Notes: generated by a model not told the origin, from the sequence alone. A stretch of DNA of 64,000 bases from Candidatus Omnitrophota bacterium (GCA_030681595.1 JAUXSB010000037.1:133708-197707), one strand, 5' to 3'. Positions 20,008 to 45,830 are shown, numbered from the stretch's first letter. Program-made: numbers and translations.

Positions 20008-20081
20008 ATGGAGCGGGTGAACGGAATCGAACCGTCATATATAGCTTGGAAGGCTATTGTTCTACCATTGAACTACACCCG
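20008..20081 (-). tRNA. tRNA-Gly (anticodon UCC), CCA encoded
   Basis: The reverse complement folds as a canonical cloverleaf (GCGGGTG...AATAGC-CTTCCAA-GCTAT...GGTTCGATTCC...CACCCGC-T-CCA). It closely resembles known tRNA-Gly(UCC). Confidence 0.85.
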
Positions 20082-20094
20082 CAAAATTCATATT

Positions 20095-20138
20095 AGGCAG
20101 CGGGAGAAGGCTACTGCACTACCATTGTGCTACGCTCG
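20095..20138 (-). pseudogene. Degenerate tRNA-Gly-like fragment (5' half with an internal deletion)
   Basis: GCGAGCGTAGCACAATGGTAGTGCAGTAGCCTTC matches the 5' 34 nt of the adjacent tRNA-Gly, with compensatory D-stem changes. It then jumps to a 3'-end-like TCCCGCTGCC and has no anticodon or T arm. Confidence 0.4.
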
Positions 20139-20897
20139 CGTCACTTTTAATTCTTCGCGATCAAATTTATTGGTACGAATTTTGGCTAATTCCCAGCTAT
20201 AATCGTATAGATGCAGGCCTTTGCTGACGGCAATGATTTCGCCGTCTTCTACGCCAATTTCGTCGGCCATATAATTTTTGACTAATTGTAAACCTCCGCA
20301 ATTAGAAGGAAACCCGCCCCAGAGGTCCCATGACCTAAAATACAAGATAAAATGCAGTTTGCCGTACCTGATGCGCGTGTCAATCAAGCGCAGGCACGGC
20401 GGGTCTGTTAATTTAATGTCGTTTGGCATCCCGATTTCCATTACCGCCTGATTTGTGCCGTGCCCCTGTGTCTTGTACATATTTATTACTTCCTCGATTT
20501 GGTTGCAATTCAGAGGGATTTCTTCGCAGAGTTCAGAGGAACCTTTACTTTTTACCCTTACTTTAGGGTCGACCAATCTTTCTCCGTACGTATAATCCTC
20601 CGTATTGGTCTTTTGGCCGGTTAAGAGGTAACTCAGGTATGAATTTATATAGTCCATATCGGTCGGTGGAGGAATGTTCATTCCTTCCGGGATAATCGGG
20701 ATTATCTGGCGGGATGGTTTTTTGACGCGGATAGTTACAAAATCAAATTCAAGGCGTTTTTGCCCTTGATAGCTTCCGCGGTCTATGGTATAGATGTGGC
20801 CTTTATCAAGGATTTGGTAGAGGCATTGAAACCATGCGTCATCTAAATCAAAGGCATCGATGTAAACGGGCGTAAGAAAAATCTCTTTTTCCAGCAT
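20130..20897 (-). CDS. Thymidylate-synthase superfamily (ThyA-like) protein, short archaeal/phage-like form
   Basis: DPPCLRLID (PPC catalytic-Cys motif) and RSWDLWGGFPSNCGGLQLVKNYMA align with ThyA's LPPCH and RSxDxxLGxPFNIASYALL. The N-terminal RTG phosphate-binding motif is not evident. Confidence 0.5.
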   Translation of the reverse strand: MLEKEIFLTPVYIDAFDLDDAWFQCLYQILDKGHIYTIDRGSYQGQKRLEFDFVTIRVKKPSRQIIPIIPEGMNIPPPTDMDYINSYLSYLLTGQKTNTEDYTYGERLVDPKVRVKSKGSSELCEEIPLNCNQIEEVINMYKTQGHGTNQAVMEIGMPNDIKLTDPPCLRLIDTRIRYGKLHFILYFRSWDLWGGFPSNCGGLQLVKNYMADEIGVEDGEIIAVSKGLHLYDYSWELAKIRTNKFDREELKVTRA

Positions 20898-20901
20898 AAT
20901 G

Positions 20902-21129
20902 TTATTTTTTAAAGAATCTTACGGCTAATTTTATAGCTACTATTAGTGCAGTTCCAATAATTAACCAAGATATAATAGCGAATAACGTACTACCGATAAA
21001 TACTTTCGCAGAACTAAGGTACGGTGTTCCGCCTTCTCTTTTTGAAAGGGCGGCTATTATTTGCTGTGCTAAAAAAATAGCAATTATCAAAATAGTGCCT
21101 ATGGCAACGAAAGTTTTAGTTTTTTTCAT
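20902..21129 (-). CDS. Small membrane protein (2 TM)
   Basis: 75-aa ORF with two hydrophobic helices. No homology recognised. Confidence 0.3.
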   Translation of the reverse strand: MKKTKTFVAIGTILIIAIFLAQQIIAALSKREGGTPYLSSAKVFIGSTLFAIISWLIIGTALIVAIKLAVRFFKK

Positions 21130-21145
21130 CTTTTTATAGAATTAA

Positions 21146-21249
21146 TGGGCAGGAGAGGGTTCGAACCTCTGAAGCATTGCGCAGCAGATTTCAAGTGTCC
21201 GCCACTACTTCTTTGGCGGACAGTCGCCAACGCTTTGTGGCGACTGCCC
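21146..21249 (-). ncRNA. 104-nt tRNA-like structured RNA of unknown class
   Basis: Minus-strand RNA with a 5' GGGCAGU pairing a 3' CCUGCCC-A, and a perfect T-arm AGAGG-UUCGAAC-CCUCU. Two long internal hairpins (6-bp and 7-bp stems) fit no canonical D or anticodon arm. No CCA is encoded. Confidence 0.3.
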
Positions 21250-21387
21250 TTAAGTTACCTCAAGGCTTGGACTATCTCATCACCATAGCTTTATGTTTCT
21301 TAGCTTTAGGCGGTAGGCGCTTAGTCTCTGCACCTTCACCCCTTCTTGTTTTCACAAGAAAGCAGGGGCGCTTGGCTCAGGATTGCC

Positions 21388-22092
21388 CTAAGATTTTAGG
21401 GTTTCCCTGAATTCACCTACTTTTTCATCTAACCTTTCGGTAAGATGCTGCATTTTATACAGTCTGCCCCCTTTGGCCGCTTGGGTACCTGCCCAATCTT
21501 TTATAAATTTATCTGTCCAACTTTTAATTAATCCAAGTAATCGCTTATCATTATAGCGGATATGCACTAATCCATAAAGTAATTTTCTTTTGCTTAAATT
21601 AAGATTACCTATTCGTATATAAGGTTTTGTAAATTGGTTTAATGGTATTTGTGTTATTTTGTGCCAGTAGATTTTTAACTGATCAATGTTTTGATATGAA
21701 TAAGCATATAAATAAATTCGCAATCGTTCTTCTTGAACGCCGCAAATCTCGCGTAAGAATCGCAGGAAAACTTTTATCATTTCTGGATTGCTGTTAGCAA
21801 AGTCTACTGTATTACCGTGGAATGTCCCTTCTGCCCAATAGAGCATTAATCCAGATATTTTTAGGTTTTGTTCTAAAATACTAAGTTTTTCTTTGGTTTT
21901 AAATTGCGGTTTATGTTTATTGTTGAGATAGTTTGCCTCTGATAATGACCGCCTAGGTATTTTATTTTTATTCATAAAGTTATATAAGGACCAAACGGAA
22001 ATGCCTAACCTATGCGAAACTTCTTCAAGATTAAATTGATTATTCCAGTATAGGTTTTTAATTTTCGCTATGTTGGGGTTTTTGTTTGGCAT
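21388..22092 (-). CDS. HTH plus LAGLIDADG-like putative homing-endonuclease-like protein
   Basis: N-terminal HTH (LEEVSHRLGISVWSLYNFM). The segment GLMLYWAEGTF...KVFLRFLREI resembles a LAGLIDADG motif with its following helix. Located between tRNA genes. Weak call. Confidence 0.35.
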   Translation of the reverse strand: MPNKNPNIAKIKNLYWNNQFNLEEVSHRLGISVWSLYNFMNKNKIPRRSLSEANYLNNKHKPQFKTKEKLSILEQNLKISGLMLYWAEGTFHGNTVDFANSNPEMIKVFLRFLREICGVQEERLRIYLYAYSYQNIDQLKIYWHKITQIPLNQFTKPYIRIGNLNLSKRKLLYGLVHIRYNDKRLLGLIKSWTDKFIKDWAGTQAAKGGRLYKMQHLTERLDEKVGEFRETLKS

Positions 22093-22099
22093 ACTTTTA

Positions 22100-22175
22100 T
22101 GGAGCTGGCGAGAGGATTTGAACCTCCGGCCTGAGGTTTACAAAACCCCTGCTCTACCAACTGAGCTACGCCAGC
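22100..22175 (-). tRNA. tRNA-Thr (anticodon UGU), CCA encoded
   Basis: The reverse complement GCTGGCGTAGCTCAGTTGGTAGAGCAGGGGTTTTGTAAACCTCAGGCCGGAGGTTCAAATCCTCTCGCCAGCTCCA gives a canonical cloverleaf. Confidence 0.85.
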
Positions 22176-22176
22176 G

Positions 22177-23040
22177 TCAACTACATTTTTTAATTGCCGC
22201 GGGGATTTTGCTTACAATATCCGAGGCAATTAAACCCATTTGTGTTTTTTCTTCTGTAGCTAAATCTCCGGCTTTACCGTGGATGTAAACCGCGTATTTT
22301 GCGGCGCTAAACGCGTCAAGCCCTTGCGCTAAAAACGCGCCGATGATTCCGCTTAATACATCGCCCGAGCCGGCTGTGGCCATCCCGGGATTACCGGTTT
22401 TATTTATATAGGTATTTTTTTTATCCGCGACAATCGTATTGTGTCCTTTTAGCACAACCGTAATATTATAATCAGAAGCTACTCTTTTTGCAATAGTTTT
22501 ACGGTTTTTGTTTATTTTGGCTATGCTTAGGCCTGTTAGCCTTGACATTTCCCCTACATGCGGCGTAATTATTTTCGTAACCCATGACCCATGACCCATG
22601 ACCTGTAATATATCTAAATGGCCGACTAAAGCATTAATGGCGTCGGCATCGATAACCATAGGTTTTGAGCAATTTTTTATAATTTTTCGGATTAATTCTT
22701 GCGTAGGATTATTCTGCGAAAGGCCCGGCCCGATAATCAAGAGGTCCGTTTTTTCATCAATAAATTTTATAATTTCCGGATACGCATTTATGCTTAAAGC
22801 CTTATCTTTAGTTTCGGCTAAAGGTTTTAGCATTAGTTCCTTTATTCTCCGGGCAAAGGCGTTATGTAATGAGCGCGGGATGCCCAAGGTAACTAATCCG
22901 GCGCCCGAGCGCAAAGTAGATTCTCCCGTAAGGATTGCCGCGCCCGTTAAGCCGCAGGAGCCGGCTAAAATAAATACGCGCCCAAAATCTCCTTTATGAG
23001 CGCTAGCCTTTCTTCGTAATAATTGCGCTGGCAACTGCAT
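22177..23040 (-). CDS. ADP-dependent NAD(P)H-hydrate dehydratase (YjeF C-terminal/Nnr family)
   Basis: Carbohydrate-kinase-like fold with GPGL, HxGE and GSGDVLSG motifs. 287 aa. Confidence 0.75.
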   Translation of the reverse strand: MQLPAQLLRRKASAHKGDFGRVFILAGSCGLTGAAILTGESTLRSGAGLVTLGIPRSLHNAFARRIKELMLKPLAETKDKALSINAYPEIIKFIDEKTDLLIIGPGLSQNNPTQELIRKIIKNCSKPMVIDADAINALVGHLDILQVMGHGSWVTKIITPHVGEMSRLTGLSIAKINKNRKTIAKRVASDYNITVVLKGHNTIVADKKNTYINKTGNPGMATAGSGDVLSGIIGAFLAQGLDAFSAAKYAVYIHGKAGDLATEEKTQMGLIASDIVSKIPAAIKKCS

Positions 23041-23416
23041 AATCTTTAATGTGTGAAATAGATACCGAAATCTTATATTTTTTATTATTTTTAGCTAAGC
23101 TTATCAAAGGTTTACCTGTTTGGTTATTTGCTACTTCTATATCCTTAAAAGCAAATTTACCTCCGCCAGCAGCTTTAATTACCGCTTCTTTTGCGGCAAA
23201 CCTGCCGGCTAAATGCTCATAAACAAAGCGTTTACTCTTGGCATAGGCGATTTCTTTGTCGGTAAAGACGCGGTTTAAAAAAAGGTCGCCCCATTTTTTG
23301 ATTGATTGCTTTAGCCGCTTTACTTCTACGATATCTATTCCGGTACCGATTATTTCCATTCTAAATACGATTACACCGATCAATAAGCCGGTAAGGCAAT
23401 GGTTTTGGTTTTCCAC
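23003..23416 (-). CDS. acpS: Holo-[ACP] synthase (4'-phosphopantetheinyl transferase AcpS)
   Basis: IIGTGIDIVEV...GRFAAKEAVIKA motifs. The true start is probably the internal Met near 23359 (MEIIGTGID). Confidence 0.75.
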   Translation of the reverse strand: MENQNHCLTGLLIGVIVFRMEIIGTGIDIVEVKRLKQSIKKWGDLFLNRVFTDKEIAYAKSKRFVYEHLAGRFAAKEAVIKAAGGGKFAFKDIEVANNQTGKPLISLAKNNKKYKISVSISHIKDYAVASAIITKKG

Positions 23417-23519
23417 TTAGCCAAAGCCATAAGCCGGTAAGGCAATGGTTTGGTTTTCCACTTAGCCAAAGCCATAAGCCGGTAAGGCAATGGTTTTGGT
23501 TTTCCACTTAGCCAAAGCC
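23383..23519. repeat. Tandem direct repeat, 3 copies of a 45-46-bp unit (ATAAGCCGGTAAGGCAATGGTTTTGGTTTTCCACTTAGCCAAAGCC)
   Basis: Three head-to-tail copies between pdxJ and acpS. They differ only by one T in the T-run. Confidence 0.85.
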
Positions 23520-29133: not shown

Positions 29134-29572
29134 ATACCTGTTCCGGAAACATCCTTTCTTCGGAAATCGTATCTTCTAAGGCGGAAACCTTTTCTAATTG
29201 AAACAAGTAGTCCGAGTATTCCTGCGGATTATAATTTGTGCTTCTTAATTCTTCTTTTTGCGCATTTTCGATTTCTAACAATTCATCATCTTTGTCTTTG
29301 TCTAGGCGCTCCCTGATTTTATCTTCTTTGTCGGGATTGCTTAATAAGCTATCTTTAACTTCTTCGGCAATGTCGCCCCGGCCTGATATTTCATCTATCG
29401 TCAGGCGTTCGGATATCCTTTCTAAAATAGTTTTTCTTAATTTTAGAAGCCTGATTTTAGATTCCTGTTTAAAAATCCACATGGCTTCTAACTTTTTCCG
29501 CTCTTGATAATATAGTTGTTTAAGCAGTTCGATATACATATAAATAAGTGACGGCGAGTGGATTTGAACCAC
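29081..29572 (-). CDS. Hypothetical charged coiled-coil protein
   Basis: Highly charged E/K-rich ORF. The annotated 5' end overlaps tRNA-Met, so the true start is probably the internal Met (MYIELLKQ). Confidence 0.3.
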   Translation of the reverse strand: MVQIHSPSLIYMYIELLKQLYYQERKKLEAMWIFKQESKIRLLKLRKTILERISERLTIDEISGRGDIAEEVKDSLLSNPDKEDKIRERLDKDKDDELLEIENAQKEELRSTNYNPQEYSDYLFQLEKVSALEDTISEERMFPEQVYEEQKFINEKGPANDNK

Positions 29573-29622
29573 TGGCCGAGCGGGTATGAGCCGCTTGCTC
29601 TACCAGGCTGAGCTACGCCGCC
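29549..29622 (-). tRNA. tRNA-Met/Ile2 (anticodon CAU; elongator type, 1-72 paired), no CCA encoded
   Basis: The reverse complement GGCGGCGTAGCTCAGCCTGGTAGAGCAAGCGGCTCATACCCGCTCGGCCAGTGGTTCAAATCCACTCGCCGTCA forms a cloverleaf. tilS is nearby, so a lysidine-modified tRNA-Ile2 is possible. Confidence 0.8.
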
Positions 29623-29769
29623 AAAATTTAGTTATTAATTCAAAAAACAGCACCGCTTGTTAATGACGGCACAACTTATGGAGTTGTAAAACGACATAAG
29701 TTGTTTAGCCGGAATTAATCTCGACAACTGCAAGAAGCATTTGGGACAAATTTTCGTAGCGTATTGTTG

Positions 29770-29799
29770 TCGAGCTCTACCAGACTGAGCTATCCCGCC
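29770..29799 (-). pseudogene. tRNA-Met-like 5'-half fragment (acceptor plus D arm only)
   Basis: GGCGGGATAGCTCAGTCTGGTAGAGC is near-identical to the 5' 26 nt of the adjacent tRNA-Met. No anticodon or T arm follows. Hairpins fill the 150 nt between it and the tRNA. Confidence 0.35.
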
Positions 29800-45690: not shown

Positions 45691-45724
45691 TATTAAAGAT
45701 ACGAAAAACGTTCTTTAAAAATCA

Positions 45725-45830
45725 ATCAGCAAAGGTAAACTATCTGAAAGGGTAGGGCGCAAAGCCGCGAGTCTAACTCTCTATAAATAATGGAGATACG
45801 ATTGTCGGGCTGCCGTATTCCAGCGTTCGT
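45725..45830 (+). ncRNA. Candidate c-di-GMP-I (GEMM) riboswitch aptamer
   Basis: AAAGGUAAACUAUCUGAAAGGGUAGGGCGCAAAGCCGCGAGUCUAA parallels the Vibrio Vc2 aptamer segment AGGGCAAACCAUUCGAAAGAGUGGGACGCAAAGCCUCCGGCCUAA. Shared elements: GNRA-loop hairpin, GCAAAGCC junction, CUAA. A second hairpin and an intrinsic terminator follow. Confidence 0.45.

Follow-up and report, generated by a model that had tools for sequence, protein, structure and literature searches.

Introduction

Group I introns interrupt the anticodon loops of several bacterial tRNA genes, including tRNA-Leu(UAA) at position 34/35 and tRNA-fMet at position 33/34 in cyanobacteria, tRNA-Ile(CAU) in Azoarcus, and tRNA-Arg(CCU) in Agrobacterium. 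Homing endonucleases of the LAGLIDADG family include single-motif enzymes that act as homodimers, such as I-CreI and I-CeuI, and the regulator WhiA is derived from this family. SegB of phage T4, a free-standing homing endonuclease of the GIY-YIG type, is encoded in a tRNA gene cluster. Free-standing endonucleases are also said to be paired with introns that are defective or lack an open reading frame (ORF), as reported for F-CphI with the psbA intron of cyanophage S-PM2 and for mobE with the I-TevIII intron of T4. Here, we describe a tRNA-Tyr(GUA) gene that is split by a group I intron, together with the ORF of 234 amino acids (aa) that directly precedes it. Both were found in a 64,000-nucleotide (nt) stretch of a Candidatus Omnitrophota genome (hereinafter referred to as the window), which was compared with related loci numbered L001, L002 and so on.

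A recent survey reported group I introns at position 35/36 of tRNA-Asn and tRNA-Asp in Patescibacteria and demonstrated that these introns are self-splicing (Nakagawa et al., 2026; PMC13011429). The single tRNA-Tyr(GUA) 35/36 intron listed there, from a Doudnabacteria genome, begins ...ACUGU/aaaaaUGCAGC (slash, splice site), a start identical to that of the intron described here, and the only Omnitrophota genome in the survey carries a 33/34 intron in tRNA-fMet (PMC13011429). Endonuclease genes were sought within introns only, and it was concluded that most bacterial tRNA introns carry no gene for a homing endonuclease, that their horizontal transfer is infrequent, and that they are largely immobile (PMC13011429). 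In phages, trans homing is known, as is "collaborative homing", in which a free-standing endonuclease targets the insertion site of an intron (PMC3984707). An intron-encoded enzyme with specificity for tRNA-fMet's anticodon region is also known, as indicated by the work cited as reference B105 in PMC3984707. No report of tRNA-Tyr introns in Omnitrophota was found in the literature searched.

A tRNA-Tyr gene split by a group I intron

The region 21146-21494 on the minus strand is, close to certainly, one gene, encoding tRNA-Tyr(GUA) with a group I intron between U35 and A36 of the anticodon loop (Table 1). Its 5' exon (GGGCAGG UA CCC AAGCGGCCAAA GGG G GCAGA CUGU) contains the acceptor 5' strand GGGCAGG, a 3-bp D stem, the anticodon stem strand GCAGA, and the loop nucleotides CUGU, the last of which is U35. 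The 3' exon starts with A36-A38 (AAA UCUGC), continues with a long variable arm and the T arm (AGAGG UUCGAAC CCUCU), and ends with the acceptor strand and the discriminator A (CCUGCCC A); CCA is not encoded. Once the intron is removed, the exons form a type II cloverleaf with the anticodon GUA, the 3-bp D stem and the long variable arm. ARAGORN in intron mode called a tRNA-Tyr(gta) with a 267-nt intron and the boundaries actgt/...cttg/aaatc. Default ARAGORN and the Rfam tRNA models missed the split gene.

The intron matched the Rfam group I model RF00028 at 21248-21469 on the minus strand over the full model (positions 1-253), with 103 bits against a gathering score of 50 (E = 5e-27), and it has no internal ORF. 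P1 contains a U35-G wobble at the 5' splice site, and the core consists of P3-P8. The loops of P2 and P9 are GAAA and GUAA, respectively, and the terminal G lies at 21192. The core of the Omnitrophota introns (AAUUCAGGGAAACC ... GAGCCAAGC ... GAAGGUGCAGAGACUAAG ... GAUAGUCC) appears to resemble that of the Azoarcus-type IC3 introns.

For comparison, 48 homologous pre-tRNAs were aligned, from loci retrieved via the family of the 234-aa ORF and via the ThyA-like gene of the same cluster, plus the closest relative, L081 (approximately 85% nucleotide identity). The structure (tRNA stems, P1-P9, P9.1, P9.2, and the P3/P7 pseudoknot) was written from the window sequence and counted on this alignment. 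Paired bases were found in 97.3% of cells, compared with 33-51% when the partners were slid, and changes on both sides were observed in 46 pairs. The acceptor, D, anticodon, and T stems were 100% paired with covariation; covariation was seen in every helix, and P7 was invariant. The introns ranged from 181 to 290 nt and occupied an identical insertion site in all sequences. The U-G wobble at the 5' splice site (U36-G44 in pre-tRNA numbering) was present in 48/48, and all introns end ...G/AAAUC. The score above the gathering threshold, the U-G pair with the terminal G, and the covarying P3-P8 core with its P3/P7 pseudoknot together identify the element as a group I intron.

A preliminary description of the window had proposed a single tRNA-like RNA of 104 nt at 21146-21249. 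This unit dissolved on analysis into the last 58 nt of the intron (positions 210-267) and the 46-nt 3' exon, with the 5' exon 245 nt upstream, within the 3' end of the 234-aa ORF. The perfect T arm (GGTTCGAACC) and the 3' acceptor strand are indeed present, and the "non-canonical internal hairpins" correspond to an optional P9.1/P9.2 extension of the intron. The proposed 6/7-bp acceptor-like helix turned out to be a coincidence, as its GGGCA belongs to the intron tail GAGGGCACUUG; pairing of this tail with the acceptor 3' strand was rejected because the tail is unchanged in relatives with differing acceptor stems (GGACAGG, GGGGAGA, GGACGGG). The suggestion of an uncharacterized or intron-containing tRNA was right in kind as regards the intron but missed the boundaries and the tRNA-Tyr identity. 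Of the other families that had been named, tmRNA, tRNA-Sec, and Y RNA gave no Rfam match in 21146-21249 at E <= 1 or at gathering scores, and ARAGORN found no tmRNA.

Seven of the 48 introns share the P9.1/P9.2 extension, which is located identically in each and shows compensatory changes; the 219-nt intron of L081 is without it. Further optional modules were a pair of hairpins (about 36 nt) that separates P7 from the P3 3' strand in L002, L007, L008, and L019 (alignment A4, columns 248-283) and long P5 extensions in L001, L007, and L019 (columns 104-140). The peripheral elements come and go independently of the core. In addition, ARAGORN in intron mode detected a tRNA-Arg(GCG) gene with a 188-nt intron right after tRNA-Tyr in L059 (1810-2071), a candidate-phylum metagenome-assembled genome (MAG), probably of Patescibacteria, which agrees with the Arg(GCG) 34/35 introns listed in PMC13011429.

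Self-splicing of the intron from the tRNA-operon transcript would restore a standard 82-nt type II tRNA-Tyr. The gene is overlooked by standard annotation (default ARAGORN), and such genomes can therefore seem to lack tRNA-Tyr; the 234-aa ORF is present in GenBank as a shortened hypothetical protein of 195 aa.

An endonuclease-like ORF directly upstream of tRNA-Tyr

The start codon of the 234-aa ORF lies 7 nt from the end of tRNA-Thr(UGU). A total of 580 homologues were retrieved at E <= 1e-3, nearly all unnamed and many from Omnitrophota MAGs; one of them is 100% identical yet annotated 39 residues shorter. A scan of species genomes yielded 319 loci in Omnitrophota and Patescibacteria. Among 58 family sequences, 27 residues were invariant.

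As the preliminary description had noted, the ORF carries a helix-turn-helix (HTH) and a LAGLIDADG-like motif. A weak N-terminal HTH was the sole Pfam or NCBIfam detection, and it matched the HTH of phage HNH endonuclease families (PHROGs, E = 2e-6). The helix of the motif LKISGLMLYWAEGT ends with YWAEG, in which E88 and G89 were invariant in the 58 sequences. In an AlphaFold (AF2) model of residues 1-199, with a predicted local distance difference test (pLDDT) score of 90, this helix spans residues 72-88; it thus ends, as in LAGLIDADG proteins, in a conserved acidic residue followed by Gly. The ORF is likely, though unproven, to be a free-standing homing endonuclease.

The position of the ORF was examined in 80 genome loci. 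The ORF was nearly always found directly 5' of tRNA-Tyr, and its conserved domain usually ended at most about 50 nt from a tRNA 5' end, the adjoining tRNA being Tyr or, in eight Patescibacteria loci, Thr(GGU). The stop codon preceded the tRNA in 29 loci. It fell within the tRNA or the intron in 53 loci, often at CUG-UAA of the anticodon loop and in varying reading frames. In the window, the last 35 codons extend across the tRNA-Tyr 5' exon and 71 nt into the intron; given the variation among the 53 loci, these 35 C-terminal residues represent read-through and not a functional tail.

Co-distribution of the ORF and the intron

A sample independent of the ORF was obtained by selecting 50 loci via the ThyA-like gene, all of which cover the interval between tRNA-Thr and tRNA-Tyr. 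The base state of this clade is CarbK, Thr, 9-30 nt, Tyr, Gly, and ThyA. Five loci carried both the ORF and the intron (one of them, L121, with a truncated ORF), none carried the ORF without the intron, five carried the intron without the ORF, and 40 carried neither (Fisher p = 1.2e-4). The intron was thus present in approximately 20% and the ORF in approximately 10% of the loci, and these counts indicate that both elements are sporadic and linked. Among 68 loci selected via the ORF, 35 carried the intron. Identities of the ORF and of host genes were discordant in both directions (95% vs 72% and 61% vs 76%). The arrangement expected for collaborative homing was found here, that is, an endonuclease-like gene outside and adjacent to a gene with an ORF-less intron, with which it is co-distributed.

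Three loci stood out in the same interval. The ORF of L121 (3333-3524) is truncated to residues 7-70 beside an intron-bearing tRNA-Tyr; L100 (4893-4967) retains a 25-residue remnant of the ORF, and tRNA-Tyr was not detected at this locus; and L084 (4621-5256) has a spacer of 636 nt that does not resemble the ORF. Such loci seem to represent stages of decay, or a slot between tRNA-Thr and tRNA-Tyr that is occupied by something else.

A proposed homing mechanism

Taken together, we consider it probable that the split tRNA-Tyr and the flanking gene form a system in which a free-standing homing endonuclease mobilizes an ORF-less intron by collaborative or trans homing. The protein would combine an HTH DNA-binding module with a single LAGLIDADG-like domain and act as a homodimer. 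It would cut tRNA clusters that lack the ORF. During repair from a carrier genome, for which the flanking tRNA genes would serve as homology arms, the ORF would be copied into the cut allele together with the intron 36 bp away. Such a process corresponds to what is termed "collaborative" or "trans" homing.

More speculatively, the target may be the near-palindromic anticodon arm of tRNA-Tyr, CAGA-CUGUAAA-UCUG. In the spliced arm, N-CAGA-CUGUAAA-UCUG-N, the intron site lies half a nucleotide off the centre. An intron at the centre of the target might therefore protect carrier genomes, and carriers without the intron might be protected by divergent anticodon stems. The NCAGA/UCUGN stem was found in 46/47 classified intron-bearing loci, in 34/36 loci without ORF and intron, and in 0/33 ORF-bearing loci without the intron; the 34 loci that lack both elements and have the CAGA stem are therefore potential homing sites. 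Recognition of the anticodon arm by a homodimeric enzyme, with immunity conferred by the intron or by a divergent stem, would fit this distribution, and we put it forward as a tentative proposal, on the less probable side.

Several observations weigh against the homing interpretation. The C-terminal domain gave no LAGLIDADG profile match in Pfam (the ORF and 58 relatives) or NCBIfam; PDB sequence searches (phmmer, profile) linked no LAGLIDADG family to this domain, and hhalign against I-CreI gave nothing. Foldseek matches in the PDB and in a viral library were non-significant, with LAGLIDADG and intein endonucleases recurring among them, and the sequence of predicted secondary-structure elements includes helices beyond those of the canonical alpha-beta-beta-alpha-beta-beta-alpha fold. 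Because of the missing profile match and the extra helices, the domain is termed LAGLIDADG-like and not a demonstrated member of the family, a designation suggested by the fold of the model. No Shine-Dalgarno sequence was seen for the window ORF; its expression is uncertain, since it has no stop codon before the tRNA. The ORF and the housekeeping gene beside it show correlated identities (rho = 0.56), so the ORF is in large part inherited vertically, and mostly vertical descent with some lateral transfer would fit the identity data. The ORF persists beside an intron-less tRNA-Tyr in most Patescibacteria loci and therefore does not need the intron, and half of the intron-bearing loci in the unbiased sample are without the ORF. 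Finally, the stem pattern is seriously confounded by phylogeny, because the 33 intron-less carriers belong for the most part to Patescibacteria or to distant Omnitrophota, and their relatives without the ORF lie outside the sample.

It is unlikely that the ORF is instead a domesticated DNA- or RNA-binding protein without nuclease activity, for example one that regulates the tRNA operon in the manner of WhiA or that serves as a maturase in intron folding, kept for the benefit of the host. Its occurrence in just about 10% of the loci sampled regardless of the ORF indicates that it is dispensable, and it is not a required splicing factor, given the five intron-bearing loci without the ORF and the 33 ORF-bearing loci without the intron. 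E88, the acidic residue that closes the motif helix, is invariant, whereas WhiA is not known to retain the corresponding acidic residue. Moreover, a selfish gene passing through its cycle of decay would be expected to leave truncated copies such as that in L121.

We regard it as quite improbable that the ORF and the intron are independent and co-occur only through the shared ancestry of their carriers, with no functional or mobility link. The phylogenetic non-independence of the loci would favor such an explanation, as would the correlation of ORF and host identities and the Patescibacteria that have the ORF without the intron. Nevertheless, among loci picked via an unrelated gene, the intron accompanied the ORF in 5/5 carriers and was present in 5/45 non-carriers. 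The 35 intron-bearing loci among the 68 ORF-selected carriers are exactly those with the CAGA stem, the identity discordances suggest lateral movement, and the two elements are 36 bp apart, well inside typical co-conversion tracts.

Collaborative homing remains our preferred interpretation, and a wider version of it may be considered, although we find it doubtful. The family might represent an overlooked mobility engine of "ORF-less" tRNA introns, which in both Omnitrophota and Patescibacteria would occupy the spacer 5' of tRNA-Tyr, cut the palindromic anticodon arm and drag the intron, and perhaps whole alleles of the tRNA cluster, between genomes. A truncated tRNA-Gly that recurs in these clusters with a two-hairpin insert at 35/36 would then be a by-product of such movement or a new small structured RNA element.

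Neighbouring genes and partial tRNA copies

On the minus strand, the order of features is tRNA-Thr(UGU), the 234-aa ORF, tRNA-Tyr(GUA), an ORF with two predicted transmembrane (TM) segments, a ThyA-like gene, a truncated tRNA-Gly, and tRNA-Gly(UCC) (Table 1). Default ARAGORN called three tRNAs, all on the minus strand, namely the tRNA-Gly, tRNA-Thr, and tRNA-Met genes of the preliminary description.

Table 1. Positions of the features of the tRNA cluster, and of tRNA-Met, in the window
Feature	Position	Strand	Basis or remark
tRNA-Thr(UGU)	22100-22175	minus	ARAGORN; Rfam tRNA 71.3 bits; first gene of Thr-Tyr-Gly cluster
234-aa ORF, HTH and LAGLIDADG-like	21388-22092	minus	Conserved part, residues 1-199 = 21496-22092
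tRNA-Tyr(GUA) 5' exon, 36 nt	21459-21494	minus	ARAGORN intron mode; sequence; alignment of 48 homologues
Group I intron, 267 nt	21192-21458	minus	Rfam RF00028; covariation over 48 sequences
Optional P9.1/P9.2 extension, two hairpins, about 49 nt	21198-21246	minus	In 3' tail of intron
tRNA-Tyr(GUA) 3' exon, 46 nt	21146-21191	minus	ARAGORN intron mode; sequence
75-aa ORF, two predicted TM segments	20902-21129	minus	
ThyA-superfamily gene, 255 aa	20130-20897	minus	Pfam PF00303
Truncated tRNA-Gly(UCC)-like element, short form, 44 nt	20096-20139	minus	
Functional tRNA-Gly(UCC)	20009-20082	minus	ARAGORN; Rfam 75.1 bits; 100% identical in L081
tRNA-Met(CAU)	29548-29622	minus	ARAGORN

The ThyA-superfamily gene and the two-TM ORF had both been recognized correctly from the sequence. 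The former matched PF00303 in its C-terminal half only, above the cut-off (41.3 vs 24.3 bits, E = 1.3e-10), and contains the catalytic Cys in a DPPC motif that is invariant in 15 relatives; it also matched solved ThyA structures at E ~1e-8. The cut-off of the NCBIfam equivalog TIGR03283 was not reached (102 vs 174.55, E = 2.6e-29). The gene was detected with 77-93% aa identity in 17 of the first 82 related loci and in 80 metagenome loci, a conservation that exceeds that of the neighbouring CarbK gene (50-60%). Its usual position in relatives is just downstream of tRNA-Gly. The position between tRNA-Tyr and tRNA-Gly, seen in the window, L081, L015, and the metagenome loci L083, L084, L094, and L095, is a local rearrangement. 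As judged from its conservation, it is a core gene of this Omnitrophota clade that belongs to ordinary core metabolism and is not a phage remnant. No tblastn match to the 75-aa ORF was found in the 82 related loci. The slot between tRNA-Tyr and the ThyA-like gene (window 20898-21145; L081 10902-12388) is a small hot spot of variable content. The window has the 75-aa ORF there, L081 has unrelated ORFs of 52, 199, and 175 aa, and many loci have a two-component system.

The truncated tRNA-Gly, 13 nt upstream of the complete gene, consists of tRNA positions 1-35 joined to UCCCGCUGCC, and the stop codon of the ThyA-like ORF falls inside it. It had been described as a degraded copy of the 5' half of the adjacent tRNA-Gly. 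A 44-nt 5'-half copy is indeed present, with the D stem GCAC/GUGC compared with GUUC/GAAC in the gene, but it is not a decayed copy of that gene, as it matches the functional tRNA-Gly of L035, from another Omnitrophota lineage, in 33/34 positions. An origin as an attachment-site (att) scar of an island was also rejected, as the 13-nt spacing does not fit. The junction GCCUUC/UCCCGC was found upstream of tRNA-Gly in L005, L013, L021, L087/L088, L125, and L145 as well, and variant copies were present in L156 and L158; the element is absent from L081.

Long forms comprise tRNA positions 1-35, a two-hairpin insert of 75-85 nt with compensatory changes, CAAGCYAY (positions 36-43), a short spacer, and the complete gene, and short forms, including the window copy, end after UCCCGC. 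The long forms lie at L158 3059-3176, L156 5793-5918, L145 3599-3720, L087 921-1041, and L005 6238-6359, and their hairpin strands repeat the acceptor-stem strands in reverse order (UCCCGC...GCGGGA). Folding of the window copy was not above that of shuffled sequence (z = +0.4). A tie to the intron was not supported, since in the unbiased set the element occurred at two intron-bearing loci (which share one sequence), one intron-free locus, and one undecided locus. The truncated tRNA-Gly is thus a separate recurrent element, which may be a decayed paralogue with a former insert at 35/36, a leader or processing element, or a by-product of recombination in the tRNA cluster.

A 177-nt unit upstream of tRNA-Met (29623-29799, minus strand) begins with 22/26 nt of the tRNA-Met acceptor and D arm (29774-29799) and continues with two hairpins, a G-U-rich closing stem, and a U run; the 5'-half copy with hairpins noted previously at this site was thereby confirmed. 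L081 (2268-2590) contains two tandem copies of the unit with compensatory changes in the hairpins, and four other Omnitrophota TilS loci lack it. Assignment to a known RNA was rejected, the sole Rfam match being a weak one to YrlA (15.8 bits vs a gathering score of 69).

The preliminary description had linked the ThyA-like gene, the endonuclease-like ORF, and the tRNA fragments to a phage module, of which the region would be the integration scar. This is highly improbable. Partial tRNA copies do adjoin tRNA genes, the content of the slot between tRNA-Tyr and the ThyA-like gene is variable, and PHROG thymidylate-synthase families match the ThyA-like gene. On the other hand, the high identity of this gene across the clade and its synteny with the tRNA cluster in about 100 loci speak against a phage module of ThyA and endonuclease, no integrase was found among the window ORFs and no flanking att or direct repeats around a cargo region, and the partial tRNA-Gly lies 13 nt from the gene, whereas an island would have it at its distant end. 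What is mobile here is probably the intron together with the endonuclease-like gene beside it, and not a prophage. A separate small RNA of tRNA-like type at 21146-21249 (Y RNA-like, tmRNA-like, or tRNA-Sec) can practically be set aside despite the perfect T arm and a possible 6-bp closing helix, as its 5' end lies inside the full-length Rfam group I intron match where other families gave none, its 3' 46 nt complete a tRNA-Tyr with the 5' half upstream, relatives show no covariation between the closing helix and the acceptor stem, and 49 nt of it are missing from the closest relative.

Elsewhere in the window, a c-di-GMP-I riboswitch aptamer was detected at 45724-45817 on the plus strand (Rfam RF01051, 70.2 bits vs a gathering score of 35). 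Two repeats were seen in the raw sequence and ORF list only: three tandem copies of CCATGACC within the NAD(P)HX dehydratase gene (22572-22598, plus strand), and a duplicated stretch upstream of acpS (about 23361-23507, minus strand) in which NHCLTGLWLWLSGKP occurs twice in one frame.

Comparison with known systems

The intron resembles other bacterial tRNA introns in being a small, ORF-less ribozyme in the anticodon loop with a U-G pair at the 5' splice site and a terminal G, and it shares position 35/36 and the guide sequence GCAGC with the published tRNA-Tyr intron of Doudnabacteria. It differs from known tRNA introns in its host phylum, Omnitrophota, in the optional P5, P6, P7-P3, and P9.1/P9.2 extensions, and in its link to an endonuclease-like gene outside the intron. 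It adds a member to an already known kind of tRNA intron.

Compared with LAGLIDADG enzymes and WhiA, the 234-aa ORF has no detectable profile similarity, has extra helices between the strands and an N-terminal HTH, and is encoded outside any intron or intein. The family is unnamed, has no Pfam or NCBIfam entry, occurs in at least 319 species-level genomes, and may have a defined target of 15-17 bp, which makes it a candidate for a new sequence-specific nuclease. Similar to SegB of T4, it would be a selfish endonuclease gene between tRNA genes that favors the inheritance of its own tRNA region; SegB differs in being a GIY-YIG enzyme, in residing in a phage, and in having no intron.

The closest parallel is collaborative or trans homing in phages, with which the locus shares the co-occurrence of an endonuclease-like gene and an intron as well as the proposed logic, in which the intron interrupts the target of the enzyme and repair copies both. 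The phage cases concern a protein gene and enzymes of the Endo VII or HNH type, whereas the present case concerns a tRNA gene on bacterial chromosomes and a putative LAGLIDADG-like enzyme. Further, the endonuclease-like gene lies immediately against the split gene on its 5' side, and its conserved end is only 36 bp from the intron site. In the window and approximately 40 related loci, the endonuclease-like gene lies just outside a split tRNA and co-occurs with the intron. If the enzyme is active, the conclusion that bacterial tRNA introns are largely immobile (PMC13011429) needs revision, and the locus would provide a chromosomal, tRNA-gene case of the proposed first step in the building of mobile introns. 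Set beside the phage systems, the presence of a LAGLIDADG-like gene next to the split gene in bacterial tRNA operons constitutes a new variant.

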